A stretch of 64,000 nt of DNA from positions 65,156 to 129,155 of the forward strand of contig CALCZP010000003.1 in the NCBI GenBank assembly GCA_937903035.1, written 5' to 3'. This document shows positions 6,367 through 46,439 of the stretch, piece by piece (the first letter of the stretch is position 1; every line of letters starts with the position of its first letter). The DNA comes from an uncultured bacterium (GTDB lineage: Bacteria > Patescibacteriota > Minisyncoccia > Phycocordibacterales > UBA9973). The notes below the pieces were generated by a model. It saw nothing but the letters and a program-made list of their open reading frames with translations, had not been told where the DNA came from and did not search any database. The translations under genes were made by a program, and so were the position numbers.

Positions 6367-6369
6367 GTA

Positions 6370-14217: not shown

Positions 14218-14225
14218 AGGTGAAA

Positions 14226-14792: not shown

Positions 14793-14898
14793 TTTTTTAT
14801 AGGATGAGTTTGTATAGACTTACCCATACTACTTGACAAAATAATATAAAGTCATAGTATGATTTTATCGTTCTTTTAAATAAACTAAATATACTGAC

Positions 14899-15540
14899 AT
14901 GAACCAACCATTAAATGACTTCAATTTTGAGGATTTCGCCAAGCAAACCGCCAATAAAACCAAAGAAATGATTAGGACACTATTTATCCTTTTCAAAGAA
15001 ACATCCTTCCCGCTCGCAAAGCAGGATGCACTTGATTATCAAACCGTGTGTATGATTGAAGATGAATTTCGTAACCAGGAAGCTGCATGTGAGAATTTAC
15101 TCAATAATGCGTTTAAAGAATTCAATGATAGTAATACAAAATGGTTTGAGCGATTTAAGAACCTCACTGCGGGCTACACGCGTATCGCATTGAACATCGC
15201 CGAATCATTCGTTGTTGCTAGTCGTGGACACTTCTTTACGTATTACAGCATCCATCCATCACAGATACCGCCCCATCTTGCAGATGTCTTTATGCAAGAA
15301 GCAGAGCTTCAACATTTTTTGCTTATACAAAAACAGAATCAACGAAGTGATCGTATATCACGAGTTTCAAAAAAAGTTTCTAGTGCTTTAAAATGCTATA
15401 GGATTGATTTTGAAAATGCATTCTCTGCAGCAATACGGAATTTGATTGAAGTTGAAATACCTGCATCTCAAAAAAGAATTGAGGTGCTCATCAATCAAAA
15501 TTATCTGCAACGCATGGGTGGTCTTCATGGAATGAATTAG
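14899..15540 (+). CDS. Hypothetical protein
   Basis: 213-aa ORF followed by an intrinsic terminator; no recognisable family. Confidence 0.45.
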   Translation: MNQPLNDFNFEDFAKQTANKTKEMIRTLFILFKETSFPLAKQDALDYQTVCMIEDEFRNQEAACENLLNNAFKEFNDSNTKWFERFKNLTAGYTRIALNIAESFVVASRGHFFTYYSIHPSQIPPHLADVFMQEAELQHFLLIQKQNQRSDRISRVSKKVSSALKCYRIDFENAFSAAIRNLIEVEIPASQKRIEVLINQNYLQRMGGLHGMN

Positions 15541-15554
15541 AGTTGTTAAATTAA

Positions 15555-15585
15555 AACCTCCCAAGATTGGGAGGTTTTTTATTTC
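15555..15585. terminator. Bidirectional rho-independent terminator
   Basis: ACCTCCCAAGATTGGGAGGT hairpin followed by a T-run, between convergent genes. Confidence 0.7.
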
Positions 15586-15588
15586 ATA

Positions 15589-15945
15589 TTAGTTGTTCAT
15601 ATGCGCTTTGTTGGTGCGCGCTGCGGGATTTGCTTCGAGGCGATCTTCTTCGATTGGTTCACCAGAAACTTCACAGATACCATACGTACCGTTTTCAATC
15701 TTTGTAAGTGCCGCATTCACATCAGTGAGACGAGCCTGGAGTGTTTCAACCATACTTGATCGTTCTTCAAAATCTTCAAAACGATCAGCTGCATCGTTCT
15801 CATCAATCTCACCCATCAAGTCACGATCAGGTGTTGCCTCCCATACATTGGTATCAGGGTTAAAAAGCGCGATTTGAGAAAGCTCTTCTTCGAGGGTCTT
15901 TTTTTCCGCGATGAGTTTTTCGTTGAAATGGGTCATATTCTTCAT
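15589..15945 (-). CDS. DksA/TraR family C4-type zinc finger protein
   Basis: C-terminal GTYGICEVSGEPIEEDRLEANPAA (CxxC...C-less variant of the DksA zinc finger); start chosen at ATG 15945 (MKNMTHF) with a GGGG Shine-Dalgarno; the ORF extends to 15996. Confidence 0.65.
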   Translation of the reverse strand: MKNMTHFNEKLIAEKKTLEEELSQIALFNPDTNVWEATPDRDLMGEIDENDAADRFEDFEERSSMVETLQARLTDVNAALTKIENGTYGICEVSGEPIEEDRLEANPAARTNKAHMNN

Positions 15946-15996
15946 ACCCCGTATACTAGCATGCAGTGGTAAAAGTACAACCTTTTTTCCACACAC

Positions 15997-16899
15997 TTAT
16001 TGTTTGATGACGGTCTCGTAGACTGCCTTGAGTACTTCTGGTTTCTGAGTGATAACAATGATATTGTCGGTTGCATAGCCGTAAAGAAGTACATGTTGCT
16101 GTTCTCCTGTATCAGTATTTAGTGCGGTTAGTATTCGCACTGGAAGGTTGTACAAATATTTACTCTCAAACCCTTTGCCGATCTCAGTTTGATGTGTCGA
16201 GATATCGATACCGAGTCCATTGTAAAACATACGCAAGAGCTCTGGCTCCGCGATGAGAAATTCTTTGGATGCGATTTCCGGATCAGTAACTGATGCAATT
16301 AGAAATGGAGTTATGGTAGTACCATCATTGTAAGCACCAAGTCTCAGTACTGAGATTGCTGCAATAAAAGGCTCGGTCGCTTTTGTTTCCATGAAGTTCA
16401 AAAGATCAGTGTTAGTGATCATCGCAAGAGTCTTGTCGTCGGTCACAAAAGGGATCAGTACTGGCTTGCGTTCAGGAAGAGTCGTATCTGTTTTAATTGC
16501 TGCAATCGTTTGTCTGATGTCTGTTGAACTTACAACAACAGGCTTCGTGCTTGGAAAGACCCCTACTGACTCAGTCTTGTGCACCGTGACAGTGAGATGG
16601 GTGTAATGATAAAAGCCGTATGCTCCTGCACCAAGTGCAATCAAAAGAAGGATGAATGATCCCGCGAGAAACCAGCCATGCTTAAACTTAATCACCTTTT
16701 CTTCCCGAGCAATCATATCGCGCTCGCGTGCGTCAGTAAGGAGTTCTTGGACAACTTTCGCATCGGTTGCATTCATTGCATGTGACAAGTCACTCTCATA
16801 ATCATGAGTGAGATGATGTGGAATGATTTCTTGCTTCGATGGTTCTACAACCACAGGTGCAACTTTTTTTTCTTCAGGTTTTGGTGCTGTTTGCTCCAT
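15997..16899 (-). CDS. Hypothetical single-pass membrane protein
   Basis: 300-aa ORF; TM WFLAGSFILLLIALGAGAYGFY. Confidence 0.5.
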   Translation of the reverse strand: MEQTAPKPEEKKVAPVVVEPSKQEIIPHHLTHDYESDLSHAMNATDAKVVQELLTDARERDMIAREEKVIKFKHGWFLAGSFILLLIALGAGAYGFYHYTHLTVTVHKTESVGVFPSTKPVVVSSTDIRQTIAAIKTDTTLPERKPVLIPFVTDDKTLAMITNTDLLNFMETKATEPFIAAISVLRLGAYNDGTTITPFLIASVTDPEIASKEFLIAEPELLRMFYNGLGIDISTHQTEIGKGFESKYLYNLPVRILTALNTDTGEQQHVLLYGYATDNIIVITQKPEVLKAVYETVIKQ

Positions 16900-16914
16900 A
16901 GTACTTGCTAGTGG

Positions 16915-17424
16915 TTAGTACCCCAAGAGATATTTTTTTGGTGCATCTGAGAGGTCAAAGAAGTCATCAACACTTGCCTTGAGCGATGCCGATGCACTTT
17001 TACCAAATGTTGCTGCCTCCACTTGAATACCGTGATGGTATCGCAAGTATTCAACCACTGGAACAAAGTCCCCATCCCCGGAGACGATGATTACCGCATC
17101 AAGCTTTGGTGCCATTGCGACAATATCAATTGCAAGACCGACATCCCAGTCAGCTTTTTTGGATCCATCATAAAATATCTGGAGGTCCTTCACTTTCGGT
17201 TCAATACCCGCCTTGGTGAGTGCACCAAGAAATCCTTTCTCGTCCTCGCTCTCCGTGGTGATCGCATATGCAATAGCTCGTACAAGTTTGCGTCCGGCGA
17301 GTACGTCTTTGACAACGTTTCCAAAGTTCACTTTTCGTTTATATAAATTTTTTGCGGTGTGGTAGAGGTTTTGTGTATCAATAAAAATACCCACGCGCTG
17401 ATCTTTGTGTTTTACGGTTGCCAT
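16915..17424 (-). CDS. NYN-domain (LabA-like) protein
   Basis: VGIFIDTQNL ... IVSGDGDF pattern of NYN/LabA nucleases. Confidence 0.7.
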   Translation of the reverse strand: MATVKHKDQRVGIFIDTQNLYHTAKNLYKRKVNFGNVVKDVLAGRKLVRAIAYAITTESEDEKGFLGALTKAGIEPKVKDLQIFYDGSKKADWDVGLAIDIVAMAPKLDAVIIVSGDGDFVPVVEYLRYHHGIQVEAATFGKSASASLKASVDDFFDLSDAPKKYLLGY

Positions 17425-33493: not shown

Positions 33494-34720
33494 TTATGCA
33501 GTTTCTTCGCTATTTAATACTTCTTCGACTGGTTCGACGAGAGCTGTTTCTCCCATTGCTTCAGCTGCAAGATCTTTGAGAGAAACGAAATCGTCACCTT
33601 CTGGTTTGAGCATATCTTCGGATGCTTCTGCTTCGGTGCCCTTGATATCGATTTTCCATCCAGTGAGCTTTGCAGCAAGACGAACGTTCTGTCCACCTTT
33701 ACCAATGGCGAGAGAGAGCTGATCTGGAGTTACTTCAATCGTCGCCTTGTGTTCTGCTTCATCAAGAGTGATATCAAGTACTCGTGCTGGGGAGAGGGCT
33801 TTGCGAACAAATTCTTCGGGATCAGGAGACCATTCAATAATATCGATTTTCTCACCACCGAGTTCATTCATCACGGTTGAGACGCGAACACCTTTCTGAC
33901 CAACACATGATCCGACTGGATCAATATTCTGATCATCGGTCCATACGGCAATCTTTGAACGACGGCCGCCTGGTTCACGCGCAATAGCCTTTATTTGGAC
34001 AAGTCCGTTTGCAACTTCAGGGCTCTCGTATGCAAAGAGCTTTTCGAGAAATTTCGGATGGGTACGAGAAAGTCTGAGGTTTACGCCGCGAGGAGACTCC
34101 TCAACATTGTAAAGATATGCTCGGATGCGTGCGCCACGAGCATAATGTTCACCAGGAATCTGTTCATTTGGAGGGATAACACCGACTGCACGGTTAAAAT
34201 CTACAAATACGTTACCTCGATCAATTTTTTGGATGTGACCAGAGACAATATCACCTTCTTTGCTGCCAAATTCGTCTAAGATAGAAGTGCGCTCTGCTTC
34301 GCGGATGCGCTGCATGATAACTTGTTTTGCAGTTTGAGCTGCGATACGACCAAAGTCATCCTTTGGTTCGAGGGGGAATACAATTTCATCTCCGATTGCT
34401 GCATCAGTCTTCATGATACGAGCATCTTCAAGGAGAATGTGTTTCTCTTCATTATAATGTTCGCGTTCCTCGTCTTCGTGCTCGGGTTCTTCGGTGAAGT
34501 ACACCATTGAGTCGTCAACGACAGTCTTTACCTGCTCAAATGCAAAGGTACCACCATCAAGATCAATAGCTGCACGGACAACTTGGCCTTTTTTGCCATA
34601 TTCTTTTTTGTACGCGGCAGCAAGTGACTGTTCGATAGCGTCGATAAGTTTGTCGCGCGCGATACGACGCTCTCCTTCGAGCTGTTCGATCGCTAATTTA
34701 AGTGCTTTGATATCTAACAT
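33494..34720 (-). CDS. nusA: Transcription termination/antitermination protein NusA
   Basis: N-terminal domain, S1 domain, two KH domains (GxxG); 408 aa. Confidence 0.9.
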   Translation of the reverse strand: MLDIKALKLAIEQLEGERRIARDKLIDAIEQSLAAAYKKEYGKKGQVVRAAIDLDGGTFAFEQVKTVVDDSMVYFTEEPEHEDEEREHYNEEKHILLEDARIMKTDAAIGDEIVFPLEPKDDFGRIAAQTAKQVIMQRIREAERTSILDEFGSKEGDIVSGHIQKIDRGNVFVDFNRAVGVIPPNEQIPGEHYARGARIRAYLYNVEESPRGVNLRLSRTHPKFLEKLFAYESPEVANGLVQIKAIAREPGGRRSKIAVWTDDQNIDPVGSCVGQKGVRVSTVMNELGGEKIDIIEWSPDPEEFVRKALSPARVLDITLDEAEHKATIEVTPDQLSLAIGKGGQNVRLAAKLTGWKIDIKGTEAEASEDMLKPEGDDFVSLKDLAAEAMGETALVEPVEEVLNSEETA

Positions 34721-34815
34721 ATGTAATTGTTATTCTATTTTTTATAAAAAAATATCCCCGGACGAGTGGAGACATTTGCGATTGCACTATACCATGAAGT
34801 ATACTTGTATGACAA

Positions 34816-36273
34816 ATGAAACAGATATCCGGTCGCGCTATCTTTCTCTCGCTTCTTTTCGTCATTCTTATTGGTGGCGCAATCAAAATTTTTGCATCCG
34901 CAAGTGAAAATGTAACTGGCTACGCATGGTCATCAAACATTGGATGGCTCAGCATGAATAACTGCCAGAATGGTACCTGTGGACCTCAGGGGTATGGTGT
35001 TTCAATGATGTCGACAGCTCCTGGTACGATCAGTGGCTACGCATGGTCATCAAACATTGGATGGGTTACGTTTAATGATACTGGATGTCCTTCAACGGTG
35101 AGTGGTTGTACTGGAGGTGCATCGATTGATTGGGCTCATCCAAATAGTGATAGTACAGTCAATCTAAAAGGGTGGGCACGCGCCTGTTCAGTATTTGCAA
35201 GCGGCTGCAGTGGCGCACTTGCTGCTGATACACGTCGAGGTGGCTGGGATGGTTTTATATCTCTTAATGGCAGTAATTGGGGAGGAAAGCTTAATCCTAC
35301 GACTGGTGTGGTGACTGGCTACGCATGGGGATCAGAGATTATTGGATGGATGTCACTGACAGGAATGCAGATAGGGATACCACCGCAGCAACCTGTTACA
35401 GTAACCCTTGCTTCTGCAGATGCGTGTATACCAGCTGGTCAAAAAGGACGTTTCACCTGGGATGTTACTCCGCATAGTGCAACAAGTAGATATAATACGG
35501 GAGGTGGTGCTGGTCCTAATATTGGTGGTTGCGATATCATTAAGGGTACTAAAGCAGATCCTATTTGTGAAAAGACTACTCGAGGTGATGGTACAGGAGG
35601 AAGTCCAAATACCTATCAATATATAGAGCACACACCAGCAGATCCTTCTACAGATGATCTATGTCCTGATGAATTTGATGTTCCAAGTACTGCATTGCTC
35701 GCAGGTGGTAGTCATAACTTTCAGTCAAATGTATTTACCACTATTGGTGGAACTACGTATTATCAAACATCGCTCACACCAGCAATGAGTGATTCAGAAC
35801 CGTATATATTGCGTTGTTATGATGTGGTCAATCAGACGCAGTATGATTCACCGCAGGTATTTGTTAGTCAGTGTCCCGCACCAACTGAGGATTTCACTAT
35901 CACTGCAACACCTTCAAGTCAAAAGCTCGTTGATGGCACAGGGATTAATCTTGGTAAAAAAGTAGCGACGTTCACTATAGCGGTAAATCCTATCAGTGGT
36001 TTTGGTGCTGCGGGAGATAGTGTGGTACTTGCAATTCAGTCATACCCAACAATGCCCCCAAGTACAACATTCAACTTTAGCTCTCCGACACTCAACTGGA
36101 ACGGATCATCGTTCGGTACTGCAACACTTACGGTGGTTATTAATGCAAATGAAGTTACCACTGCAAGTTATACACCGATTGTGATCTCTGGTACTTCAAC
36201 ACCAGGGGTGCGTACCACAAGTGTTACCGTTGGAGGTAAGGGGAAGAAGCAGACGATTTTTGAAGAAATCTAG
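34816..36273 (+). CDS. Secreted protein with three tandem GYAWSSNIGW(L/V)(S/T) repeats and Cys-rich segments
   Basis: Signal peptide ending ASA; repeats at 34918-34950 and 35035-35067 (30 nt identical) and 35316-35351. Confidence 0.6.
   Translation: MKQISGRAIFLSLLFVILIGGAIKIFASASENVTGYAWSSNIGWLSMNNCQNGTCGPQGYGVSMMSTAPGTISGYAWSSNIGWVTFNDTGCPSTVSGCTGGASIDWAHPNSDSTVNLKGWARACSVFASGCSGALAADTRRGGWDGFISLNGSNWGGKLNPTTGVVTGYAWGSEIIGWMSLTGMQIGIPPQQPVTVTLASADACIPAGQKGRFTWDVTPHSATSRYNTGGGAGPNIGGCDIIKGTKADPICEKTTRGDGTGGSPNTYQYIEHTPADPSTDDLCPDEFDVPSTALLAGGSHNFQSNVFTTIGGTTYYQTSLTPAMSDSEPYILRCYDVVNQTQYDSPQVFVSQCPAPTEDFTITATPSSQKLVDGTGINLGKKVATFTIAVNPISGFGAAGDSVVLAIQSYPTMPPSTTFNFSSPTLNWNGSSFGTATLTVVINANEVTTASYTPIVISGTSTPGVRTTSVTVGGKGKKQTIFEEI
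34918..35351 (+). repeat. Intragenic tandem repeats encoding GYAWSSNIGW motifs
   Basis: GGCTACGCATGGTCATCAAACATTGGATGG occurs twice exactly, plus a diverged third copy. Confidence 0.7.
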
Positions 36274-36293
36274 TATACTTATACATACATAGT

Positions 36294-36620
36294 ATGAATG
36301 ACATTGTGCCAGCAACAGAGCAATCACTACCTATTGTAGAAAAGAAATCTCCTTTTTCTTTTCTACAAAAAGTTCCATGGCGTATCGTACTTCCTACTAT
36401 TTTTTTAGTTGTAGTGATTGCTATTTTTTTCTATATTCGTTCGACGAGAACCCAAAATACTCCTATCGAAACACTGCAAGATCTACGTACGAGCTCAATG
36501 CCGCCAATTGAATCAGAGGTACTCCGTACCTATGTAACACAAAAGACCGCTGCAACTTCTAAGCCGTATCGTCCTTCAAGAGAAACACAGCTTCAGATGC
36601 TTGAGAAGCTCGAACAATAA
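36294..36620 (+). CDS. Small single-pass membrane protein
   Basis: 108-aa ORF; TM IVLPTIFLVVVIAIFFYI. Confidence 0.4.
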   Translation: MNDIVPATEQSLPIVEKKSPFSFLQKVPWRIVLPTIFLVVVIAIFFYIRSTRTQNTPIETLQDLRTSSMPPIESEVLRTYVTQKTAATSKPYRPSRETQLQMLEKLEQ

Positions 36621-36626
36621 TATTGT

Positions 36627-37799
36627 ATGAATACTCTTTTTAAACAACTCTCACTCTTACTACCTGCACTATGTATTGCTGGTATTGCAGGAGCATATAC
36701 TCCACCTACGACTACCGCTCCAGGGGATAATACCGATGGGCCTATTACGATAGGTGCTACTAATGATGCTAAAAATGGTAGTTTGAATGTTGGTACATTT
36801 CAAGCACGTGGTAATGCATTACTTGCTCAGGATGTGTATGTGTCAGGACTCATCAATGGTGGTCATCCGTCTGATACCACTTCAACAGTGACAATCGGAA
36901 GTGCAGCTACACCAATGAAAACCATTGTTTCTGGAACCATTAGTGCTGCAAATGGGCAGTCGGGAACATTAAGTCATAGTGGAACTGGCACAAAAAATGT
37001 CTGCGCAGCTCCAGACGGTACATACATATTGTGTGGCGCTACTCCTACTGATGTTTGTCCAAATATTGCCGGCGCCCAAGCATCAATTCCTGCAGGAATG
37101 GTTATTAATGGTGCCGGGAATTGTATTGTTGAAGATCAACCAATCGATCCTGGTGTAGGTGGTGCTGGTACAGGAGGAACATTTGCAACTTGTTTTGTTG
37201 CAGATACACGAGTCACTCTTTCAGATGGGTCAAAGAAAAATATTCAGGACGTACAAATTGGTGATGTACTTCGAGGTGAGACTAGTAATAATACAGTGCT
37301 TGCATTTCACCGACCAAAACTCAATGGCATGATTTACTCATTCAATGGCGGACGATATTTTGTGACCGAAGAGCACCCATTCATGACAACTGAGGGGTGG
37401 AAGTCGATTAATCCTGAAAAAACTGCTCTTGAAAATATTGGTATTGAAGTTACCTCGCTTGAAGTAGGTGATACACTCATTACTGATCATGGTCTTGTAC
37501 TATTGACGACGATTCATGGAAAAGCGGAGTCATCTGATACTGATCTGTATAACTTCATGCTCAGCGGTGACCGGACTTACTTTGCTGATGGCTATCTCGT
37601 GCATAATAAAGCACAGTGTAGTGGGTCTACTAGTTGTGGTCCGAACCAGTACTGTATTAATAATGCAGGAGCTGTAATTACATCAGGTGGGGGATCTTGT
37701 TCTCTTGTTTGTACTCCTGGGGGGAATGTACCGACTACTGGATGTCAATCACCAAAAACACCGTATTGTGCAAGTGATAATACTGTTCGCTGTCATTAA
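36627..37799 (+). CDS. Secreted protein with a Hint (Hedgehog/intein-like, BIL-type) autoprocessing domain (37191-37607) followed by a 61-aa tail with 8 Cys
   Basis: Signal peptide; Hint block A CFVADTRVTLSDGSKKNIQDVQIGDVL, block B TEEHPFMTTEGWK, C-terminal block FADGYLVHN; tail KAQCSGSTSCGPNQYCINN...CASDNTVRCH. Confidence 0.7.
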   Translation: MNTLFKQLSLLLPALCIAGIAGAYTPPTTTAPGDNTDGPITIGATNDAKNGSLNVGTFQARGNALLAQDVYVSGLINGGHPSDTTSTVTIGSAATPMKTIVSGTISAANGQSGTLSHSGTGTKNVCAAPDGTYILCGATPTDVCPNIAGAQASIPAGMVINGAGNCIVEDQPIDPGVGGAGTGGTFATCFVADTRVTLSDGSKKNIQDVQIGDVLRGETSNNTVLAFHRPKLNGMIYSFNGGRYFVTEEHPFMTTEGWKSINPEKTALENIGIEVTSLEVGDTLITDHGLVLLTTIHGKAESSDTDLYNFMLSGDRTYFADGYLVHNKAQCSGSTSCGPNQYCINNAGAVITSGGGSCSLVCTPGGNVPTTGCQSPKTPYCASDNTVRCH

Positions 37800-37811
37800 T
37801 ATATAGATAGT

Positions 37812-38933
37812 ATGAAAAAAAACCTTCTCACCAATCTCAAATTCATCGCATTCGGTATTGTTGTTGCACTCGGAATGAGTTATGCGTCAGCTGCATGGAA
37901 TGATCCGTCAACGGGGGCGCCTGGTACCAATATTGCGCTCCCTATTCATATGGGGCAAAGTCAGCTCAAAGATGGGGGGCTTTCGGTTAATACGTTTACT
38001 GCATGGCAAAATGCGCACTTTGTACAACAAGTTTTTATTAATGAGATGCTTTCTGCCGTGACTGGATCAACCCTTGTACGGTTTGGAGGGGCTGATGCAT
38101 TAGGGACAACACGAACTGTTGCTGTTGATGTAAGTGGAGGGTTTACAACGACAGGTACTATTAAGGCAGTGAATGTTGCCGGGACCAGCGAAGGAAAACT
38201 TTGTGCAACAGCTGATGGCACTATTGTTCGCTGTGTAGCTCAGGCGGTACCTGCTACATGTGTTATTAATTCTTTTACTTCAAATAAATATAGTGTGAAG
38301 CCAAATGCGCCACAGCTCACTTTTAGCTGGTCAACTACAGGGTGCACGAGTGCTTCTATTAATGGAGTACCACTTTCATCAGTCAATGGAAGCGGGCTCT
38401 ATAATGCACCAACTCAAACAACGGTTTATACACTTACTGCCACAAATGGCACTACTAGTCCTACAAAATCATTTACTATTACGTTCGGCACTCCCCCTGT
38501 CGCAAGTTCAAATATTGCATTGTATTTAAGTGATGTACCATATGTATATAGTACAGGTACTAGTGATGGTAGTAATTATGGATACTCTTTTAAGAGAAGT
38601 TATTACGGAAAAGTGACGCTTGCACCTCAGTATGCTGTTACGCCAGGAACACCATCACCCGAGCTTGAGGTTTGTGGTGACCCTTCTCCAACATCAGCAG
38701 CTGTCTGTGCTTCTCAAAATCCTAATCCAAATAATAATCCACCACCTGATATTGAGCAGATACAACATGGTGATTATACCGTCATATTTAACGGTCTTTG
38801 TCAGAACAGTCCGGGTATGGCTAACGGTTCACCGTCTCTTCACTATAGGAATGGTGATGGAAGTGTAGGCAGTCTCGTTCCGAGTTCAATAAATATTAGT
38901 GGAATGGTCGAATTTATCGCCTCATGTCTATAA
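37812..38933 (+). CDS. Secreted paralog of the 36627 and 38938 proteins (shared N-terminal domain, Ig-like Cys-pair domain)
   Basis: First 57 nt identical to 38938; conserved GGLSV..F.A.QNA.F ... TRTV ... C.ADG.IV.C block. Confidence 0.6.
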   Translation: MKKNLLTNLKFIAFGIVVALGMSYASAAWNDPSTGAPGTNIALPIHMGQSQLKDGGLSVNTFTAWQNAHFVQQVFINEMLSAVTGSTLVRFGGADALGTTRTVAVDVSGGFTTTGTIKAVNVAGTSEGKLCATADGTIVRCVAQAVPATCVINSFTSNKYSVKPNAPQLTFSWSTTGCTSASINGVPLSSVNGSGLYNAPTQTTVYTLTATNGTTSPTKSFTITFGTPPVASSNIALYLSDVPYVYSTGTSDGSNYGYSFKRSYYGKVTLAPQYAVTPGTPSPELEVCGDPSPTSAAVCASQNPNPNNNPPPDIEQIQHGDYTVIFNGLCQNSPGMANGSPSLHYRNGDGSVGSLVPSSINISGMVEFIASCL

Positions 38934-38937
38934 ACAT

Positions 38938-40176
38938 ATGAAAAAAAACCTTCTCACCAATCTCAAATTCATCGCATTCGGTATTGTTGTTGCGTATGCC
39001 ATGAACTATGTATCAGCAAGTGCATGGATTAATCCACCTGCAAATCCTCCGATAAATAACACTGATCAGCCAGTCAATGTATCTGCTACTGATCAAGTAA
39101 AAGGTGACCCTGCTTCAGGAACAGGAGGAGGTCTTTCAGTGCTTGGTTTTGTTGCAGGACAAAATGCACAATTTGAAAAAGGGGTATTTGTTGGAGGTAT
39201 TATTCGAGGGGATTCACCGTTTGCGCCAACTACAAGCTCTACTGTCCGTTTTGGGGGAGCTACAGGACTTGGGACAACACGCACGGTCAATCTTGCCATG
39301 AACGGAAGCCTTGATACAAAAGTTTCAGTTTCTGCATCAAATCTTGCAAATGTAAGTTCTAAAGAAGTATGTGCAGATGCAAATGGAAATCTCGTATTTT
39401 GTACTACAACTCCTCCTCCTGCAGCCTGCTCAATCACTTCATTTACTGCAACTCCAAGTACTATTACTACAACTCCGGCATCAACCAATCTTCAATGGGC
39501 AACCACGAACTGTACATCTGTTACTATCGATGGTGCATTGCAGGCATCTCCAAATGGCAATGACAACTTTAGTGTGAATGCATCACATACCTATACGTTG
39601 GTTGCGACAAATACAACCTCAACTGATACAGCAACCGCACAGGTAACCTACAATCCTCCTGCTTCAAACTGTCCTGTAGGGCAGGTAGAGCTTGCTGATT
39701 TGACTGCATATGGTGCCGGGTATATCTGTGGAACACCTGGAATAAAAATCGGTGTTGCAGGTAATAATGGTTGCGGGCCATGGGGTAACTGCTATAACCC
39801 AACATATGTAAATGTCAGAACAGGTGTCAGTGTAATATTAAATGCACCTGTTGTCTCTGATACGGTATTTACCATAAAATGGACGAGCAGGGTTGGTACT
39901 TCAAATATTCCAATGCAAGAGAATTTCACCATTCTTGCAGGACAGATTCATTATGGTGGGATCATGGCTAGTCAGTTGTGGCCAGCAAGCGGTTTTGAAA
40001 CAAGTACACCTTACACCAGTGGAGTTGTTGATAGATCTGGCGTATATCGTGCCGGTACCATTTTTGGAGGAGCAGATGATTTTGGATTTCCTCTTGCGAA
40101 TATAGACAATGCAGCATGTCTTGTTGCTTCTCCAGGTGTGAACCTTGCCGCAAGTAATATTCCTGTCTGTCAATAA
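38938..40176 (+). CDS. Secreted paralog (shared N-terminus, divergent C-terminal region)
   Basis: ATG 38938, MKKNLLTNLKFIAFGIVVA identical to the 37812 protein; the ORF-track ORF begins at 38899. Confidence 0.6.
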   Translation: MKKNLLTNLKFIAFGIVVAYAMNYVSASAWINPPANPPINNTDQPVNVSATDQVKGDPASGTGGGLSVLGFVAGQNAQFEKGVFVGGIIRGDSPFAPTTSSTVRFGGATGLGTTRTVNLAMNGSLDTKVSVSASNLANVSSKEVCADANGNLVFCTTTPPPAACSITSFTATPSTITTTPASTNLQWATTNCTSVTIDGALQASPNGNDNFSVNASHTYTLVATNTTSTDTATAQVTYNPPASNCPVGQVELADLTAYGAGYICGTPGIKIGVAGNNGCGPWGNCYNPTYVNVRTGVSVILNAPVVSDTVFTIKWTSRVGTSNIPMQENFTILAGQIHYGGIMASQLWPASGFETSTPYTSGVVDRSGVYRAGTIFGGADDFGFPLANIDNAACLVASPGVNLAASNIPVCQ

Positions 40177-40180
40177 AAAA

Positions 40181-40210
40181 CAAAAAGCACCTATAGGTGC
40201 TTTTTGTTTT
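40181..40210 (+). terminator. Rho-independent terminator
   Basis: AAAAAGCACCTATAGGTGCTTTTTGTTTT; overlaps the annotated ORF start of the next gene, forcing the PilB start at 40236. Confidence 0.65.
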
Positions 40211-40235
40211 GCGCATTTCACCGTACAATGAATGT

Positions 40236-41981
40236 ATGATTGTTGATGAAGCGAAGCTTGCACGAATGATACTTGATACAGGTATTGCATCTGCTGATGA
40301 TATTGCGCGTTTTCAGTCAACACGAACAACTGATCAAACACTTTCTTCGTATCTACTCTCAAGTGGTAAGGTTAAAGAGATCGAGCTTAAGAAGCTTGAA
40401 GCATATGTGCTCGGTATCCCATTTGTAACACTCGACAAGGAGCGTCTCGAACGTGATGTGCTGTTTTTGATCCCTGAAGCGATTGCGCGCAGGTACAACG
40501 TCGTCGCATATAAGCGAAATGGCAGCAACCTTGAGATTGCAGTACTTGATATCGATAATCTTCCTGCTATTGATTTCGTTCGCAAGAAAACAGGGCTTCG
40601 TATTTTACCGCGACTTACTGATAGTGACTCGATCAAGGCAGTACTGCTGCAGTATAAAAAGAGTCTACAGGCAGAATTTGACTCTATTATCCAAAAGGAG
40701 AGTGCAAGTCTGCAAAAAATAGAAGAGAAAGATAGTGAAGTATCTCCAGAAGATCTCAAGGAGCTCGCAGAAGATCTACCAATTATCAAGATTGTTGACA
40801 CGCTTATCTCTCATGCGATTTTACAGCGTGCATCAGATATCCATATTGAGCCTGGGGAAAACGACCTCATCGTTCGCTATCGTATTGACGGTATTCTCCA
40901 TGATGCAATGACACTTCCCAAGGATGCTGCAGCAGCAGTAAGTGCTCGTATCAAAGTATTGGCAAATCTCAAGCTTGATGAAAAGCGTCTCCCACAAGAT
41001 GGACGATTCAAAATGGTAGTTGAAGAGCAGCCGGTATCGTTTCGTGTTTCAACACTTCCAACGTATTTTGGAGAAAAGACTGTCATTCGAATTTTGCGCG
41101 AGTCATCTCATGGCTACACAATGGAAGGGCTCGGCTTTCATGGGGATTCGCTTGAGCTTGTGCATGATGGTATGCATCAGCACTCTGGTATTATTCTTTG
41201 CTCTGGTCCGACCGGTTCGGGTAAAACCACTACCCTCTATACCATGCTTGATATCTTGAACACGCCTGAGGTGAATATTTCGACTATTGAAGATCCGATT
41301 GAATATCAAATGGCCCGTGTTAATCAGACGCAAGTGAAAAGTGAGATTGGGATGACCTTTGCAAACGGTCTGCGTGCACTGCTTCGTCAGGATCCTAACA
41401 TTATCATGGTAGGGGAGATCCGAGACGGAGAGACTGCTGATCTCGCCGTGAATGCGGCGCTTACTGGTCACTTGGTGCTCTCTACTATCCACACCAACTC
41501 GGCTGCGGGCGCTATCCCGCGACTCATTGATATGGGGGTTGAGCCATTTTTGATCACCTCAACTGCAAAGAGCATTATTGCGCAGCGACTCGTACGACGA
41601 CTTACCTCAGTCAAAGAAGAGTATTTCTTATCACCGGGTGAGTTGCAGCAGCTTGCACATGCGGTTGATTTGGATCGCCTGCGTCACATGCTTGAGCTTG
41701 AAAACATTATCAAGGCAGGAACACCATGGGAAAAGATTCCATTTTATCGTCCAAAGAAAAGTGAGGAAAGTGACGATGGCTACAAGGGGCGCATTGGTAT
41801 TCATGAGGTGCTTAAAGTTTCTCCTACAATCAAAGAAATTATTTTGCGAGGTGGTTCAAGTGATGAAGTTGAATCCCAGGCTAAAAAAGAAGGGATGACA
41901 ACAATGCTCGAAGACGGTATGTTCCAGGCAGTACAGGGCAAAACCACTATTGATGAAGTACTTCGTGTTGTTTCCGAGTAG
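40236..41981 (+). CDS. pilB: Type IV pilus assembly / T2SS ATPase PilB/GspE
   Basis: Walker A GPTGSGKTTTLY; Asp box; His box; GspE N- and C-domains. Confidence 0.9.
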   Translation: MIVDEAKLARMILDTGIASADDIARFQSTRTTDQTLSSYLLSSGKVKEIELKKLEAYVLGIPFVTLDKERLERDVLFLIPEAIARRYNVVAYKRNGSNLEIAVLDIDNLPAIDFVRKKTGLRILPRLTDSDSIKAVLLQYKKSLQAEFDSIIQKESASLQKIEEKDSEVSPEDLKELAEDLPIIKIVDTLISHAILQRASDIHIEPGENDLIVRYRIDGILHDAMTLPKDAAAAVSARIKVLANLKLDEKRLPQDGRFKMVVEEQPVSFRVSTLPTYFGEKTVIRILRESSHGYTMEGLGFHGDSLELVHDGMHQHSGIILCSGPTGSGKTTTLYTMLDILNTPEVNISTIEDPIEYQMARVNQTQVKSEIGMTFANGLRALLRQDPNIIMVGEIRDGETADLAVNAALTGHLVLSTIHTNSAAGAIPRLIDMGVEPFLITSTAKSIIAQRLVRRLTSVKEEYFLSPGELQQLAHAVDLDRLRHMLELENIIKAGTPWEKIPFYRPKKSEESDDGYKGRIGIHEVLKVSPTIKEIILRGGSSDEVESQAKKEGMTTMLEDGMFQAVQGKTTIDEVLRVVSE

Positions 41982-42001: not shown

Positions 42002-43213
42002 ATGAAGTTCTCATATAAAGCACGAAATACATCTGGTGCAATTGTCACTGGAGTCATCGATGCAGATGAGCGAGGAGATGCTATTTCAGCGCTTCGAGAA
42101 ACAGGTCTTTCGCCTATTGTGATTTCTAAGCAAACAGCACTCAGTTTTTCTATTACTATAAGTAGTGTGCTCAAGCGAGTAAAACTTTCAGAGAAGATTA
42201 TTCTCATGAAAAATCTCTCAGGTATGCTCCGTGCAGGACTCTCTATTTCGCGAGCTCTTGTTGTGCTTCAAAAGCAAACACCGAATGCCTATTTTAAAAC
42301 AGTGATTGGTGGACTCCTTGCTGCGATTGATAATGGGGGTACCCTTTCTGAAGGTCTTGCGCAGTACCCAAAAGTTTTTTCAACACTGGTGGTTGCAATG
42401 ATACGTTCTGGTGAAGAGTCAGGAAGTCTACCACAAGCATTGGCTGAGATTGAGGTGCAGCTAGCAAAAAGCTATGAGCTTAGGCGCAAAATTAAAAGCG
42501 CAATGATGTACCCATCTATTATTCTCGGTGCGATCTTTATTATTGGTATCCTTATGTTTATCTTTGTGGTGCCAACACTTACAAGTACGTTCAAGGAGCT
42601 TGGAGTCGAACTTCCAGCGTCAACAAAGCTTGTGGTAGGACTTAGCGATTTAATTTCAAATCATATTGCACTACTGGTTGGGGGGATTGTTGGTATTATT
42701 GTTATTGTCATAGTGCTTGCAAGATTTAGAGTAGTTCGTCGAGGGTGGGATTTTATTTCAGTACGTATTCCGGTGGTTGGCACATTACTCCAGGAGGTGA
42801 ATGCTGCACGTCTGACACGAACGCTTTCATCACTTTTGAGTTCTGGTGTCACGATCGACAAAGCAATCACCATATCCAAAGATGTACTACAAAATTCGTA
42901 TTACCGTGATAGTCTCGATGAGTTAATGGTTGTCGTACAGCGTGGCGAAACCCTTTCGAGTGTATTTCAGAAATATCCAAAACTCTATCCGATCATGGTT
43001 GCTGAAATGATAGAGGTAGGAGAAGAGACGGGTAAACTTTCACAAATGTTGTTGGACGTAGCCGTGTTTTATGAGGGGGAGGTTGATGCAAAGACAAAGG
43101 ATCTTTCTACGATCATTGAACCCGTGTTAATGCTATTTATTGGGGTTTGTGTAGGGTTCTTCGCGGTCTCTATGCTCTCGCCGATGTATAGTATTATGGA
43201 CTCTATCAAATAA
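42002..43213 (+). CDS. pilC: Type IV pilus / T2SS platform protein PilC/GspF
   Basis: Two T2SS-F domains; 3 TM; 403 aa. Confidence 0.88.
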   Translation: MKFSYKARNTSGAIVTGVIDADERGDAISALRETGLSPIVISKQTALSFSITISSVLKRVKLSEKIILMKNLSGMLRAGLSISRALVVLQKQTPNAYFKTVIGGLLAAIDNGGTLSEGLAQYPKVFSTLVVAMIRSGEESGSLPQALAEIEVQLAKSYELRRKIKSAMMYPSIILGAIFIIGILMFIFVVPTLTSTFKELGVELPASTKLVVGLSDLISNHIALLVGGIVGIIVIVIVLARFRVVRRGWDFISVRIPVVGTLLQEVNAARLTRTLSSLLSSGVTIDKAITISKDVLQNSYYRDSLDELMVVVQRGETLSSVFQKYPKLYPIMVAEMIEVGEETGKLSQMLLDVAVFYEGEVDAKTKDLSTIIEPVLMLFIGVCVGFFAVSMLSPMYSIMDSIK

Positions 43214-43218: not shown

Positions 43219-43677
43219 ATGAAATCATTTCAGACAGGCTACTCAGCAATTCAACTTATTGTGACTATTGCGATCATTGGCATACTCCTTGGGGTGGTGA
43301 GTGTGCCATTTTTGAAATTTCGCCAACAACAAGCACTTGAGAACACAACTGATGGGCTTGTATCAGTACTTGGCGAAGCTCGTGCCAAGACACTTGCCGG
43401 CTATGACAACACTTCATACGGTGTTCATATCGAAGCAGCACAGTTTGTACTTTTTACAGGGACGACATATAACGCAAATGCATCGACCAATAAAACATTT
43501 TTTTATGAAACAGGTGTGTCGCTCGGGACACTTACACTTAACGGTAGTGGATCAAACATAAGTTTTGATCGACTCAAAGGAACGACGTCACAGTATGGTA
43601 CGATTGTATTGCAATCACAAAACGGTCAGACTCGTACTATTACTATCACTAGTACTGGTACGGTAAAACGAAATTAA
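43219..43677 (+). CDS. Prepilin-type pseudopilin, GspH/FimT-like (Gln at +5)
   Basis: MKSFQTG/YSAIQLIVTIAIIGIL N-terminus. Confidence 0.65.
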   Translation: MKSFQTGYSAIQLIVTIAIIGILLGVVSVPFLKFRQQQALENTTDGLVSVLGEARAKTLAGYDNTSYGVHIEAAQFVLFTGTTYNANASTNKTFFYETGVSLGTLTLNGSGSNISFDRLKGTTSQYGTIVLQSQNGQTRTITITSTGTVKRN

Positions 43678-43682: not shown

Positions 43683-44153
43683 ATGCAGCACAAACAGACA
43701 CAACAAGGATTCTTTCTCGTAGAAGTTATTGTTGCGTCATCAGTCATTGCAGTTGTACTTGTACTATTACTTGGGTCCATTCAACATACTGTAGAGGCTT
43801 CACAGCGAAGTCTTGAGCGTACGCAAACTGCCTATCTGCTTGAGGAAGGGGCAGAGGTGGTGAAACTTATACGCAGTGAGGCGTGGTCATCGATCAGTGG
43901 GCTTACCGCTGGTACGACGTACTATTTTCTATGGACTGGATCGGTGTGGACACTTACGACAACACCTCAAACGATAAATGGGTTTACTCGCACGGTGGTA
44001 ATGACCTCGGTCAATCGCGATGGAAATAATGATATTGTCACTTCAGGCGGTACTATCGATAATGGTACCAAAAAAGTCACCATTACTGTTTCATGGATAG
44101 CTCCATCGGGAGTGCAGACAGAGAATATGTCGTTGTATATAACCAATATATGA
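43683..44153 (+). CDS. Prepilin-type minor pilin
   Basis: QQG/FFLVEVIVA with Glu +5. Confidence 0.7.
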   Translation: MQHKQTQQGFFLVEVIVASSVIAVVLVLLLGSIQHTVEASQRSLERTQTAYLLEEGAEVVKLIRSEAWSSISGLTAGTTYYFLWTGSVWTLTTTPQTINGFTRTVVMTSVNRDGNNDIVTSGGTIDNGTKKVTITVSWIAPSGVQTENMSLYITNI

Positions 44154-44650
44154 GAAACCATAAACAACAAGGTTATTCGTTAATTGAGCTGGTGATCTAT
44201 ATTGCACTTTTTGCACTGATCTCCGTAGTTATTGTAAATGCGCTGATTATGGTAATGCGTACCTATGCGTCCGCTCAAGGTTATAGAAGACTTCAAACTA
44301 ATGGAGAACTCATTATGGAGCGCGTTGTTCGAGAAATACGCGATGCATCAGTCGTATCAGGAAATAGTGTCTATGGAGTAAACTCTGGCACACTCTCACT
44401 TTCTGGTACTGACAGTAGTGGTACGGCACATACGGCAGTGTTCTCAGTATCAAACGGTGCGTTGGTGCTCAATGAAAATGGTACCAGTGCAAATCTTTCG
44501 ACTTCTGAAGTCGTGGTTAGTACGTTTATCGTTCGCCATATTACGACAACGAACGGGGAGGGTATCAAGGTTGAGCTTACACTTGCGACGACGAATGGCC
44601 ATATTGTGAGTGTACCATTTTATGCAACTGCAATGCTTCGAGGAAAATAA
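44150..44650 (+). CDS. Prepilin-type minor pilin
   Basis: MRNHKQQG/YSLIELVIYIALF from ATG 44150 (ATGA overlap with the upstream stop); the ORF extends to 44093. Confidence 0.7.
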   Translation: MRNHKQQGYSLIELVIYIALFALISVVIVNALIMVMRTYASAQGYRRLQTNGELIMERVVREIRDASVVSGNSVYGVNSGTLSLSGTDSSGTAHTAVFSVSNGALVLNENGTSANLSTSEVVVSTFIVRHITTTNGEGIKVELTLATTNGHIVSVPFYATAMLRGK

Positions 44651-44651: not shown

Positions 44652-46439
44652 ATGTACAAGGATTTCACTACAAATGGAAACAAGGGAAATGTGTTGATCA
44701 TTGTGATGGTGCTCTTTGTGGCAATTTCACTTTCTGTTGCACTAGGGTTGGTGACACCAGTGATACGCGCGAGTCATAGCGCGCAAAATGCACTTGAATC
44801 AAAGCGTAGTTATTTTATCGCAGAGTCAGGTGTCGAAGATGTGCTATATCGTCTCCGCTCATCCATGAGTGTCTCATCGAGCGAGACGTTGGTGCTTGGT
44901 ACACAAGAAACAACAACAACGCTAACAGATATCCAGAATGGACAGAAACAAATTGAATCACTCGGTGATAGTCAAAACCGTAACAGGTCTGTCACGGTAA
45001 CGGTACAACAAGGAGCTGGTGTGTCATTCAACTACGGACTCCAGGTTGGTCGCGGTGGTATAGATCTTGCTGGAAGTTCTGGTATTAATGGAAACGTGTA
45101 TGCCAACGGCAACATTCACGGTACGTCGAGCTCATTTATTACGGGAAGTGCAATTGCTGCTAGTAGTGATGCGCTCACTACTGATCAGTCAAATGGAACT
45201 GGTACGCCGACATCAGGTATTACGTTCGGGAATGCAACAGCGACACAGAGTGTTGCACAAAGCTTTGTGGTTTCAGAGGAAATTCCACTCAACAAATTGC
45301 AGTTATATCTACTAAAAACAGGAAGTCCTTCCAATATTACTGTTTCGATTGCAGCTGATGCTGGAGGTGTACCAAGTACAACAACACTTGCAACAGGAAG
45401 TATTTCGGCATCTTTGGTAACTACTGCATATGGATGGGTTGATGCGACATTTACTTCGAGTCCAACATTACAAACAGGTACCACCTACTGGATCGTCCTT
45501 ACTGCAGGAACTTCAGCAACAGCAAACTATACAATCGGTACAAATACAAATGGTTACATAGATGGAACGAGTAAGATTGGCAGACATAGTACGAGTGTAT
45601 GGTCTGCACCCACGCCTGCAACGCTTGATACATATTTCAAGCTCTATCTTGGTGGTCTTACATCATCAATTTACGGGGATAGTCAGTACAATCAGCTACA
45701 TATTGGTACAAGCGGTGCTGGTATTGCCAAGGCACATACGGTGAACTATACCAATGCCACTGGTAGTATCTATTGCCAAACAGGGACACTCAACAATAAG
45801 GCCTGCAATACTACCCAGGCTGATCCAACTCCTGAGCCATGGCCTGTTTCTGATGGAAATATCGATACTTGGAAAGCAGAAGCAGTTGCGGGAGGGACGC
45901 TTAGTGGTAATCAAACATACGGAGGCACAACAAACACCACTCTTGGCCCGAAGAAAATTGCAGGTAACCTAAGTATTGGCGGTAGTGCAGTTGTGAGTGT
46001 GACAGGGACACTGTGGGTAACAGGTAATCTGACTGTAGATGGTTCTGGTGCATTAAAACTTGCGAGTGCGTATGGATCAGGGAGTGGGACGATTATTGTA
46101 GATGGTAGAGTAATCATTGCGGGTAGCTCTCCTGTGACAGGGAGTGGTACAACAGGGAGTTATATTATGATTCTTTCTCTTTCTGACTGCCCTACGAGCT
46201 CCTCATGCAGTGGTTCGAATGCTATTGATATTAGTGGTGCTGCTGGAGCAGTCATTTTAGTTGCCCAAAATGGCACAATTAACTTTAGTGGGTCAGCAAG
46301 TGCAAAACAGGCAACGGGGTATACTATCAAACTCTCCGGTGCTACGACTGTGACATATGAAAGTGGTATTGCAAATCTTAACTTTACCAGTGGAGCATCG
46401 GGCTCATGGGTTGTTCAATCTTGGAAAGAAACGGAGTGA
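44652..46439 (+). CDS. Large pilus-associated protein, PilX-like N-terminus
   Basis: N-terminal NKGNVLIIVMVLFVAISLSVALG hydrophobic segment; 595 aa, Thr/Gly/Ser-rich. Confidence 0.5.
   Translation: MYKDFTTNGNKGNVLIIVMVLFVAISLSVALGLVTPVIRASHSAQNALESKRSYFIAESGVEDVLYRLRSSMSVSSSETLVLGTQETTTTLTDIQNGQKQIESLGDSQNRNRSVTVTVQQGAGVSFNYGLQVGRGGIDLAGSSGINGNVYANGNIHGTSSSFITGSAIAASSDALTTDQSNGTGTPTSGITFGNATATQSVAQSFVVSEEIPLNKLQLYLLKTGSPSNITVSIAADAGGVPSTTTLATGSISASLVTTAYGWVDATFTSSPTLQTGTTYWIVLTAGTSATANYTIGTNTNGYIDGTSKIGRHSTSVWSAPTPATLDTYFKLYLGGLTSSIYGDSQYNQLHIGTSGAGIAKAHTVNYTNATGSIYCQTGTLNNKACNTTQADPTPEPWPVSDGNIDTWKAEAVAGGTLSGNQTYGGTTNTTLGPKKIAGNLSIGGSAVVSVTGTLWVTGNLTVDGSGALKLASAYGSGSGTIIVDGRVIIAGSSPVTGSGTTGSYIMILSLSDCPTSSSCSGSNAIDISGAAGAVILVAQNGTINFSGSASAKQATGYTIKLSGATTVTYESGIANLNFTSGASGSWVVQSWKETE

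Follow-up and report, generated by a model that had tools for sequence, protein, structure and literature searches.

The PilY1/PilC tip adhesins are one point of comparison for the locus described here, a cassette of five genes within a 64,000-nt stretch of DNA from an uncultured Patescibacteriota bacterium ("the window"). PilY1 has a Sec-type rather than a prepilin signal, and its gene lies within a minor-pilin operon. Three of the cassette proteins, G2, G3, and G4, likewise have Sec-type, non-prepilin signals, and their genes are clustered with genes for pilus assembly and minor pilins; in both systems docking is presumed for one conserved module and target binding for one variable module. 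However, the conserved "head" of the cassette proteins is N-terminal and small (~115 aa), whereas the PilY1/PilC module is a C-terminal beta-propeller, and no sequence relation was found between them. The cassette also has three paralogs plus two further proteins, G1 and G1b, and persists without adjacent pilus genes in four of ten genomes.

Other described systems share different parts of this arrangement. In Mycoplasma Vlp/Vsa lipoproteins and proteins with YSIRK-type signal peptides, paralogous surface genes have a conserved 5′ end or signal peptide and divergent mature parts. The signal peptide of the cassette is also conserved as a family trait, but relative to Vlp/Vsa there is no lipobox, tandem-repeat region, or promoter switch, and the three copies are of ancient origin and fixed. 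Polymorphic toxins with PT-HINT domains (MafB, Rhs/CdiA-type) resemble the cassette in their conserved N-terminal part and exchangeable C-terminal modules, and one cassette member has a Hint domain; the cassette differs in having neither a toxin domain nor immunity genes, in being fixed at three copies, and in the many tail-less members of its family. Finally, P0301 and P0302, which bear the C-terminal intramolecular chaperone (Peptidase_S74) of tail-fibre-like proteins, open with the segment that begins the mature head (~45 residues). The motif in common is W-x2-P-x3-PP-x2-N-x3-P-x-N-x-G-x3-Q-x-K-x-GGLSV, and one of the two proteins adjoins a G1-like gene and a small transmembrane (TM) gene. 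The cassette head proteins have no S74 domain, however, and the remainder of the head differs. One scan of IMG/VR viral contigs with two motif patterns found no viral relatives.

Gene Content and Genomic Setting

The cassette and its downstream neighbors are as follows, with H1, H2, and H3 denoting the positions of the head genes:

34816..36273, forward strand: G1, 485 aa, with a signal peptide, predicted secreted
36294..36620, forward strand: G1b, a 108-aa single-pass membrane protein
36627..37799, forward strand: G2 (H1), 390 aa, head-family member
37812..38933, forward strand: G3 (H2), 373 aa, head-family member
38938..40176, forward strand: G4 (H3), 412 aa counted from ATG, head-family member
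40236-41981, forward strand: pilB, neighbor of the cassette, pilus context
42002-43213, forward strand: pilC, neighbor of the cassette, pilus context
43219-43677, 43683-44153, and 44150-44650, forward strand: three prepilin-type proteins, pilus context
44652-46439, forward strand: 595-aa protein with a choice-of-anchor R domain, pilus context

An earlier note on this DNA placed the ORFs of G1–G4 correctly, without mention of G1b, and its assignment of pilB and pilC directly 3′ of the cassette is borne out by domain matches (T2SSE, 2e-123; T2SSF, 5e-55). The three downstream prepilins have the class III prepilin motif and weakly resemble GspH, GspI/ComGE, and GspJ/ComGF, with scores below curated cut-offs. 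The head genes are separated by just 4–12 nt, with no intervening forward-strand ORF.

The order nusA (reverse strand), G1, small TM protein, and three head genes, always exactly three, is fixed in 10 related Paceibacteria-type genomes (the window, L007, L008, L009/L010, L011, L012, L014, L015, L016, and one JGI contig). The five genes thus form a conserved cassette in Paceibacteria-type Patescibacteria, ultrasmall bacteria of the CPR. The pilus genes, whose proximity was part of the earlier description, follow less regularly: pilB-pilC come next in six of the 10 genomes, so the linkage is frequent but not obligatory. The other four have a complete cassette without adjoining pilB-pilC, directly followed in three cases by the same tpiA-pgk flank. 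L013 has G1-like and head-motif genes together, away from pilus genes.

The Head Family

G2, G3, and G4 share a signal peptide and a head of ~115 aa closed by C-x4-G-x4-C (aa 126-136, 131-141, and 145-155, respectively), so that the heads end at aa 136 (nt 37034), aa 141 (nt 38234), and aa 155 (nt 39402). Their similarity extends past the signal peptide: mature G3 and G4 match by BLASTP at E=8e-26 (39% over 179 aa), G2 and G3 at 5e-9, and G2 and G4 at 2e-7. Of the four proteins previously proposed as paralogs, these three are, but G1 is unrelated (hhalign probability 0.9% against the head profile) and belongs to a separate family.

With profile E-values from 3e-51 to 2.5e-42 (the latter for G2, P0125), the three are members of a family of 1,025 clusters (50% identity) at E≤1e-3, for which there is no Pfam or NCBIfam model. 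Of the 150 members listed, 147 have a profile match that starts before residue 45, immediately behind the signal peptide. The C-x4-G-x4-C hairpin, invariant among 102 members, is probably a disulfide; Cys counts in the tails are mostly even, as expected for exported disulfide-bonded proteins. Some 15 of the 102 stop 0–3 aa past the second Cys, and the H3 gene of L012 was confirmed in its genomic context to encode a head only, which marks the head as a unit that is autonomous. The Sec-type signals end in A-x-A cleavage sites (ASA↓AW and AGA↓YT, the latter AGA↓YTPP in G2). The proteins were also considered as type IV pilins or pseudopilins, and this was rejected because their N-termini have no class III motif and no N_methyl match.

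G1 and G1b

G1 consists of a beta-rich N-domain with GYAWS repeats (aa ~30-190), a variable middle, and one or more Ig-like C-terminal domains, with KKQTIFEEI as its conserved C-terminal end. The GYAWSSNIGW repeats within it are:

34917-34947 and 35034-35064, forward strand: two identical 31-mers
35316-35346, forward strand: a third, degenerate copy

Three repeats, two of them encoded by one 30-mer, had been reported; the two identical copies stand, with the identity extending to 31 nt and the third copy degenerate. In the L002 ortholog (81% identical), the same S-to-P change (TCACCA) is found in both repeats, which suggests that they evolve together. All related loci have a gene of 85–135 aa at the G1b position, with G1 on one side and the head genes on the other. 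G1b diverges fast (59% identity to L002, no BLAST match to L009), although a Q-x-M-L-x-x-L-like C-terminal end recurs among proteins at this position.

The Hint Domain and Cys-Rich Tail of G2

In G2, the signal peptide and head are followed by a Cys-bounded linker and then by the two parts that the earlier note had recognized in one of the genes:

37191..37607, forward strand: Hint domain of type A bacterial intein-like (BIL) character (G2 aa 189-327)
37608..37796, forward strand: Cys-rich tail after the Hint His-Asn, 63 aa with 8 Cys

Type A BIL domains have a Cys/Ser nucleophile, T-x-x-H, and a C-terminal His-Asn with no nucleophile at +1 (PMC4031507). By its residues, the G2 Hint domain is of this type: Cys189 aligns with position 1 of the Hint models and of 6y75, block B has T247-E-E-H250, and the domain ends in H326-N327 followed by K328, with no Cys, Ser, or Thr at +1. 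As in other type A BIL domains, these residues are found within a variable secreted protein, but the host protein family is new, and all Pfam Hint-family models score below their gathering thresholds (bits/threshold: Vint 22.3/27, Hom_end_hint 21.9/32.1, Hint 17/29.7, PT-HINT 12.5/27.7). The PDB sequence match of aa 189-327 is 6y75/6tmm (E=2.5e-5).

The Hint domain and 63-aa tail form a single conserved module. They are 57–61% identical to those of P0162 and P0138 (the H3 protein of L011), both of which conserve HNK, and 53% identical to those of L012 H2, while the heads of these three proteins are only 34–38% identical to that of G2.

Age of the Paralogs and the Shared 5′ End of G3 and G4

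The 5′ ends of G3 and G4 contain an exact repeat of 57 nt:

37811..37867, forward strand: copy 1, 5′ end of G3 (the base before ATG plus 56 nt of coding sequence)
38937..38993, forward strand: copy 2, 5′ end of G4

The repeat encodes the signal peptide MKKNLLTNLKFIAFGIVVA. Identity over the first 57 nt of the genes had been reported; this figure is off by one, since the identity covers 56 nt of coding sequence. Nucleotide 57 is a synonymous difference (GCA/GCG), which leaves 19 identical residues.

This identity had been attributed to recent duplication or gene conversion. Duplication is contradicted by the mature heads, which are ~40–45% identical, and by a tree of heads from eight genomes. 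In this tree H1, including G2, is one clade represented in all eight, and H2 and H3 group with their positional counterparts in close genomes; paralogs of one genome never group together. On this evidence H1–H3 are ancient paralogs, and G3 and G4 are therefore not recent duplicates. A short conversion tract is still probable. Most of the 5′ identity is accounted for by a signal peptide conserved family-wide (consensus MKK[TN]LLTNLK[FY]IAFG), and only the remainder needs such a tract: between genomes the signal-peptide DNA is 78–93% identical (35–42 of 45 positions), compared with 45/45 and an exact run of 56 nt for the window pair, and 44/45, plus 22/30 upstream, for the L008 pair. Homogenization is seen in just two of seven genomes and amounts to ~6–10 nt positions above baseline conservation.

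Tail Exchange and Strain Variation

Compared with its close relative L009, most of the cassette is a hypervariable island:

34965..40223, forward strand: DNA not alignable with L009

The alignable exceptions within it are 35165-35258 and the 55–59-nt 5′ ends of G3 and G4; the flanks on both sides are 78–85% identical. At the protein level, NusA and PilB are each 95% identical to their L009 counterparts, G1 44% (N-domain only), and the heads 40–50%.

The conserved heads with divergent tails described previously are borne out. The tails evolve fast, usually contain Cys pairs, and have passed from one head type or gene position to another. The G2 head is 54% identical to that of L009 H1 (P0169), whose tail is of the G3 type (44% identity to the G3 tail over 234 aa). 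The Hint and Cys-rich module is found on H1 in the window, H2 in L012, and H3 in L011. Behind its head, G3 has an Ig-like-looking domain (aa ~150-225) and then a tail with Cys residues. G3 and G4 have their first tail domain in common; no homolog of the rest of the G4 tail was found, a word search with G4 giving only four matches among 5.8 billion proteins. Apart from weak Ig-like signals, domain searches of the tails recognized no adhesin-type domain.

L009 and L010, compared here as metagenome contigs that are possibly consensus or chimeric, are identical in most genes but differ by 5.6–8.5% in the 3′ part of H2 plus H3 and by 23% in the first pilin, with one more divergent patch in rny. The differences are mostly synonymous, as expected for imported alleles.

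Possible Roles of the Cassette

If the heads dock on a minor-pilin tip complex as PilY1 does, with tails that bind host cells, the cassette would encode pilus-tip adhesins. In six of the 10 genomes it immediately precedes, in the same orientation, pilB, pilC, and three GspH/I/J-like prepilins, which is consistent with this, as are the PilY1-like Sec signals, the lack of any terminator-like site beyond chance between cassette and pil genes, and the strain-level divergence of head genes and first pilin (plus the rny patch) in an otherwise near-identical locus. The role is nonetheless rather unlikely, given the four genomes with a full cassette but no adjoining pilB-pilC and the remote pair of genes in L013. 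Nor was homology to PilY1 found: 102 members of the head family gave no Pfam match beyond Hint-related ones, and Pfam and NCBIfam searches of G2–G4 found neither the C-terminal beta-propeller nor the N-terminal vWA domain of PilY1. The same four genomes count against the least probable reading, that the pilus-like machine is a secretion system whose type II secretion-like pseudopilus moves Sec-exported, disulfide-folded substrates, recognized by their heads, through the wall or S-layer. The downstream genes do resemble GspE, GspF, and GspH/I/J minor pseudopilins, with no obvious major pilin, and G2–G4 have Sec signals and Cys pairs, but the matches behind the pilin assignments are weak, scoring under the curated cut-offs.

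The earlier note also saw a resemblance to toxin loci and to phase-variable families. Were this a locus for polymorphic toxins or effectors, the head would serve in trafficking, and the tails would be toxic or effector modules, released by processing and directed against competitors or hosts. The exchangeable C-termini on a conserved N-terminus would fit, as would the G2 Hint domain, with its weak PT-HINT match and the small, potentially releasable Cys-rich peptide behind it. This is very improbable, however: Pfam and NCBIfam searches of G2–G4 and 102 family members found no toxin domain, the only Pfam matches being Hint-related, in three members; ~15% of members are tail-less; the gaps of 4–12 nt leave no small immunity-like gene behind any head gene; and the number of genes is fixed at three, unlike an expanding array that includes orphan modules. 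Antigenic or phase variation, by recombination of paralogs within a cell line or by slippage in an A8 tract after the ATG, seems quite improbable as well. The 57-nt repeat could support intrachromosomal recombination, G3 and G4 have A8 runs (37814-37821 and 38940-38947), and contigs of a close relative break off within the G2 ortholog, a few residues past the head match. Yet concerted evolution is not seen in the mature heads, the runs in relatives are A7 and come from Lys-Lys-Thr codons, and no A-tract difference separates L009 from L010. The stretch from 34500 to 40300 lacks silent cassettes, inverted repeats, and an invertase, and the only repeat of at least 35 nt is the 81-nt 5′ repeat. 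A diversity-generating retroelement (DGR) target was likewise rejected, with no RT domain among called neighbors and no template/variable repeat pair.

We favor, with slightly better than even confidence, a reading in which G2–G4 are binding proteins displayed on the surface, with a head in common for docking and tails that recombine. The proteins would be exported and then retained at the cell surface, the head serving as a shared docking or assembly module onto G1/G1b, the envelope, or the pilus tip, and the tails as exposed ligand-binding parts. Recombination would generate the tail diversity: whole tails shift from one head type or gene position to another, and strains import diverged alleles from each other. 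Homology for this would be supplied by the conserved head and the near-invariant 5′ signal-peptide sequence, and the same process would have homogenized the opening 56 nt of G3 and G4 here. The BIL domain of G2, to judge from its residues, probably self-cleaves, freeing the 63-aa Cys-rich peptide or the head. With back ends that are exchanged between genomes, the three head proteins are good candidates for partner-cell recognition molecules of CPR bacteria.

Gene content and conservation of the cassette

The five cassette genes share one orientation, with intergenic gaps of 4–21 nt, on a stretch taken from a 405-kb metagenome contig (ERZ650244); relatives named in searches are Candidatus Nomurabacteria, Paceibacterota, and Minisyncoccia, which places the organism in the Patescibacteria (CPR). 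Their upstream neighbor is a divergently oriented nusA, and pilus genes begin 59 nt past G4. A promoter and terminator scan gave a signal no different from that of shuffled sequence.

Features of the cassette and the adjoining pilus genes (window positions)
34816–36273, +, G1, 485 aa
36294–36620, +, G1b, 108 aa, single-pass membrane protein, absent from the earlier note
36627–37799, +, G2 (position H1), 390 aa
37812–38933, +, G3 (position H2), 373 aa
38938–40176, +, G4 (position H3), 412 aa
downstream of the cassette, pilB, T2SSE match (2e-123)
downstream of the cassette, pilC, T2SSF match (5e-55)
downstream of the cassette, three prepilin-type proteins with weak likeness to GspH, GspI/ComGE, and GspJ/ComGF
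44652–46439, 595-aa protein, next after the prepilins, with a choice-of-anchor R domain that narrowly passes the cut-off (E=1.7e-7)

The N-terminus of the 595-aa protein reads as a putative PilX-like hydrophobic segment, and its identity to counterparts in relatives is 49–65%.

The order nusA (reverse strand), G1, small transmembrane (TM) protein, and three genes with the conserved N-terminal domain (“head”) was found in ten genomes (the window, L007, L008, the two strains L009/L010, L011, L012, L014, L015, L016, and one JGI contig) and is partly visible in L002, L005, and L006. The number of head genes is three in all complete cassettes. Downstream, pilB-pilC are present in six of the ten genomes. 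In L012 the cassette is followed by ribosomal and translation genes, and in L014, L015, and the JGI contig by one or two small ORFs and then the usual tpiA-pgk flank; G1 and the small membrane protein accompany the heads even in these genomes without adjacent pilus genes. The linkage to pilB/pilC is therefore frequent but not obligatory, and the conserved unit is G1, the TM protein, and the heads. A reduced version, with G1, one short head gene, and pilB, occurs in L004. In the more distant L013, three consecutive genes between fusA and tuf encode a small TM protein, a protein resembling G1, and a Peptidase_S74 protein with the head's opening motif.

Several neighboring genes were also recorded. 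The L013 insert (6699–12953) encodes the small TM protein, the G1-like protein (289 aa), the fibre-like Peptidase_S74 protein, and proteins of 1017 and 360 aa. JGI contig 3300050821, in which pilB-pilC are not adjacent, encodes a 1089-aa protein with a faint YadA_head match and Peptidase_S74 (13744–17013), just past tpiA-pgk near the cassette. Relatives have a Por_Secre_tail gene of 560–670 aa beside ppa (L002 6209–7891, L009 6218–7918, L016 3153–5162), in L002 and L009 between a small hypothetical gene and ppa; the window has no such gene at the corresponding site (~32900). A similar 678-aa gene is within the L004 cassette.

Three paralogous heads and two other proteins

The earlier note described four paralogs. 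For G2, G3, and G4 this was borne out, as similarity reaches well past the signal peptide (mature G3 vs. G4, E=8e-26; G2 vs. G3, E=5e-9; G2 vs. G4, E=2e-7). G1 has no relationship to these three (hhalign probability 0.9%) and was rejected as the fourth, so the cassette consists of three paralogs and two other proteins.

The head is a family of considerable size. A word-based search with G4 gave almost no matches and a search for related loci with a six-sequence head alignment found only three in genomes; when the mature head was searched exhaustively as a profile, 1,025 clusters matched at E<=1e-3, 215 of them at E<=1e-10. Among the matches listed, 147 of 150 start before residue 45, directly behind the signal peptide. 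The domain ends in C-x4-G-x4-C in all members examined, and about 15 of 102 members terminate 0–3 residues past the second Cys. These tail-less members, together with a head-only H3 gene in L012 confirmed by its genomic context, indicate that the head is a self-sufficient unit. Its first ~45 mature residues also open two proteins (P0301, P0302) whose C-terminal domain is a Peptidase_S74 tail-fibre chaperone; a viral-contig scan for this opening motif found no relative.

Among the 102 members, Pfam had no model for the family and gave Hint-related matches in three. Pfam, NCBIfam, and PHROGs returned nothing for G1, G1b, G3, G4, or the head, and PDB searches with head and G1 profiles found no relative, the sole match, a staphylococcal amidase repeat, being noise (E=7.5). 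Single-chain structure prediction did not fold the head, well conserved as it is. That the heads are prepilins was ruled out by their N-termini and the absence of a matching Pfam domain.

In G1, two GYAWSSNIGW repeats are encoded by an identical 31-mer. Of the three repeats reported earlier, these two do share exact sequence (the 30-mer then noted being one nucleotide longer), but the third is degenerate. An 81% ortholog has the same Ser-to-Pro change in both main repeats, a shared change which hints that the repeats are homogenised within the gene. Most G1-family proteins (P0006–P0123) end in K-x-x-P-[IV]-[FY]-x-E-[FI] despite differing middle parts; in the window G1 the end is KKQTIFEEI (aa 477–485, 36244–36270). 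The motif resembles a C-terminal signal for docking or sorting. The small membrane proteins (window 36294–36620, L012, L013, L014, L015, L016) diverge fast and have similar C-terminal ends (QLQMLEKLEQ, QQLNMLNQINK, QQDMLNTLAQ, RMKMLETLQSAE, QLYMLNELSK).

Residues 189–327 of G2 match Hint models below threshold and a Hint-like chain of known structure, 6y75 (E=2.5e-5). They have the features of a type A bacterial intein-like (BIL) domain (Cys189, T247-x-x-H250, H326-N327, and Lys at +1), a type for which cleavage, more than splicing, is the main activity (PMC4031507). The HNK junction is kept in homologs, and in G2 a 63-aa peptide with eight Cys follows it. Separately, G2 aa 144–166 (window 37056–37124, CPNIAGAQASIPAGMVINGAGNC) form a short Cys-bounded linker module that recurs in P0003 (VCPNVAGGPYTTVPPGYQQNPDGTC) and P0144; in L007 it is matched by an ORF of its own that precedes G1 (5857–6789, 310 aa), with 50% identity over G2 aa 141–177.

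Shared 5′ ends of G3 and G4

An exact repeat of 57 nt is common to G3 and G4, comprising the base preceding the ATG and 56 nt of coding sequence; coding nucleotide 57 differs synonymously, so that 19 residues are identical. The peptide MKK[TN]LLTNLK[FY]IAFG is seen in many distant head-family members and in relatives' genes, and comparison of such genes between genomes finds 35–42 of their first 45 nt identical. This cross-genome conservation implies that most of the identity reflects purifying selection acting on a signal peptide specific to the family. Within genomes, the corresponding pairs match at 45/45 positions in the window (exact run 56 nt), 44/45 in L008 (with 22/30 upstream), 42/45 in L005, 37/45 in L007, 26/45 in L009, 25/45 in L015, and 22/45 in L016. 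The L008 pair has genome-specific synonymous variants in common. The leftover identity, observed in two of the seven genomes, is compatible with gene conversion over a short tract. DNA-pattern scans of metagenomes gave no match to the conserved 5′ end, although JGI contigs carrying that sequence exist.

Of the two explanations offered in the earlier note, recent duplication or gene conversion, only the latter is thus retained, as a short tract. In a neighbor-joining tree of mature heads from eight genomes, H1 (G2-type, with a YTPP-like mature end) forms a single clade, and H2 and H3 group by position between close genomes, never by genome, which rules out recent duplication.

Hypervariability and exchange of tails

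Flanking proteins of the window and L009 are closely similar (NusA 95%, PilB 95%, PPase 90%, and PilC 84% identity), and the DNA is alignable to 34964 and again from 40224 onward. Between these points only 35165–35258 and the 55–59-nt 5′ ends of G3 and G4 align. G1 is similar in its N-domain only (44%), heads are 40–50% identical, and G1b had no BLAST match in L009.

The earlier description of conserved heads with variable tails holds, and tails have been exchanged between head types, whose identity the tail families do not track. L009 H1 (P0169) has a head 54% identical to that of G2 and a tail 44% identical to that of G3. The Hint and Cys-rich tail of G2 is 57–61% identical to those of P0162 and P0138 (L011 H3), whose heads are only 34–38% identical to that of G2; the module is borne by H1 in the window, H2 in L012, and H3 in L011. 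In the closest relative (L002, L003), contigs stop within the G2 ortholog, a few residues past the end of the head match.

Most genes do not differ between L009 and L010. H2 diverges by 5.6%, all past residue 420, and H3 by 8.5%. The first prepilin (L009 19041–19496, ortholog of window 43219–43677) differs at 23% of nucleotides, with 34 amino acid changes, while pilB, nusA, and G1 are identical; another patch of divergence, in rny, amounts to 30 differences (2%). Synonymous changes dominate in the head and pilin genes, as would be expected of imported alleles.

Possible functions

The functional readings considered here are all inferred from sequence and comparative genomics. The data fit cassette proteins that are exported and held at the surface, the conserved head having a shared docking or assembly function. 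Tails would be the exposed binding parts, their diversity maintained by recombination; candidate docking partners of the head are G1/G1b, the envelope, or the pilus tip. Docking at the pilus tip is plausible, but the four genomes in which pilus genes are not adjacent weaken the case for this role. Neither toxin domains nor immunity genes were found to support a toxin locus, and a within-cell switching system seems unlikely, as no silent copies, inverted repeats, or variable tracts were seen in the assembled sequences. A diversity-generating retroelement was ruled out by a repeat search of the cassette region.

A more specific version of surface display, which seems rather unlikely, is that H1, H2, and H3 are obligate partners instead of alternative adhesins, their heads assembling together, perhaps into a heterotrimer, on a platform of G1 and G1b to give a Sec-dependent surface fibre with three different exchangeable tips. 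This would fit the presence of exactly three ancient paralogs per complete cassette, the persistence of G1 and the small membrane protein with the heads where pilus genes are missing, the opening motif common to heads and proteins with the S74 chaperone of trimeric fibres, and the failure of single-chain prediction to fold a well-conserved head.

The head, GYAWS, and small-membrane-protein families, two or three sizeable families without a Pfam or NCBIfam model, are targets for complex structure prediction, metaproteomics, and heterologous expression. What is known of how ultrasmall Patescibacteria recognise and attach to partner cells comes largely from a small number of Saccharibacteria in culture, in which type IV pili have been implicated (PMC11623550). 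A Sec-dependent surface fibre in Patescibacteria, if true, would be previously undescribed. Gene order and copy number in the cassette are conserved over a large uncultivated clade, and the cassette is among the most variable stretches in otherwise near-identical strains; determinants of host range or partner specificity would be expected to show this pattern, a conserved cassette of variable exported proteins whose ends are exchangeable.
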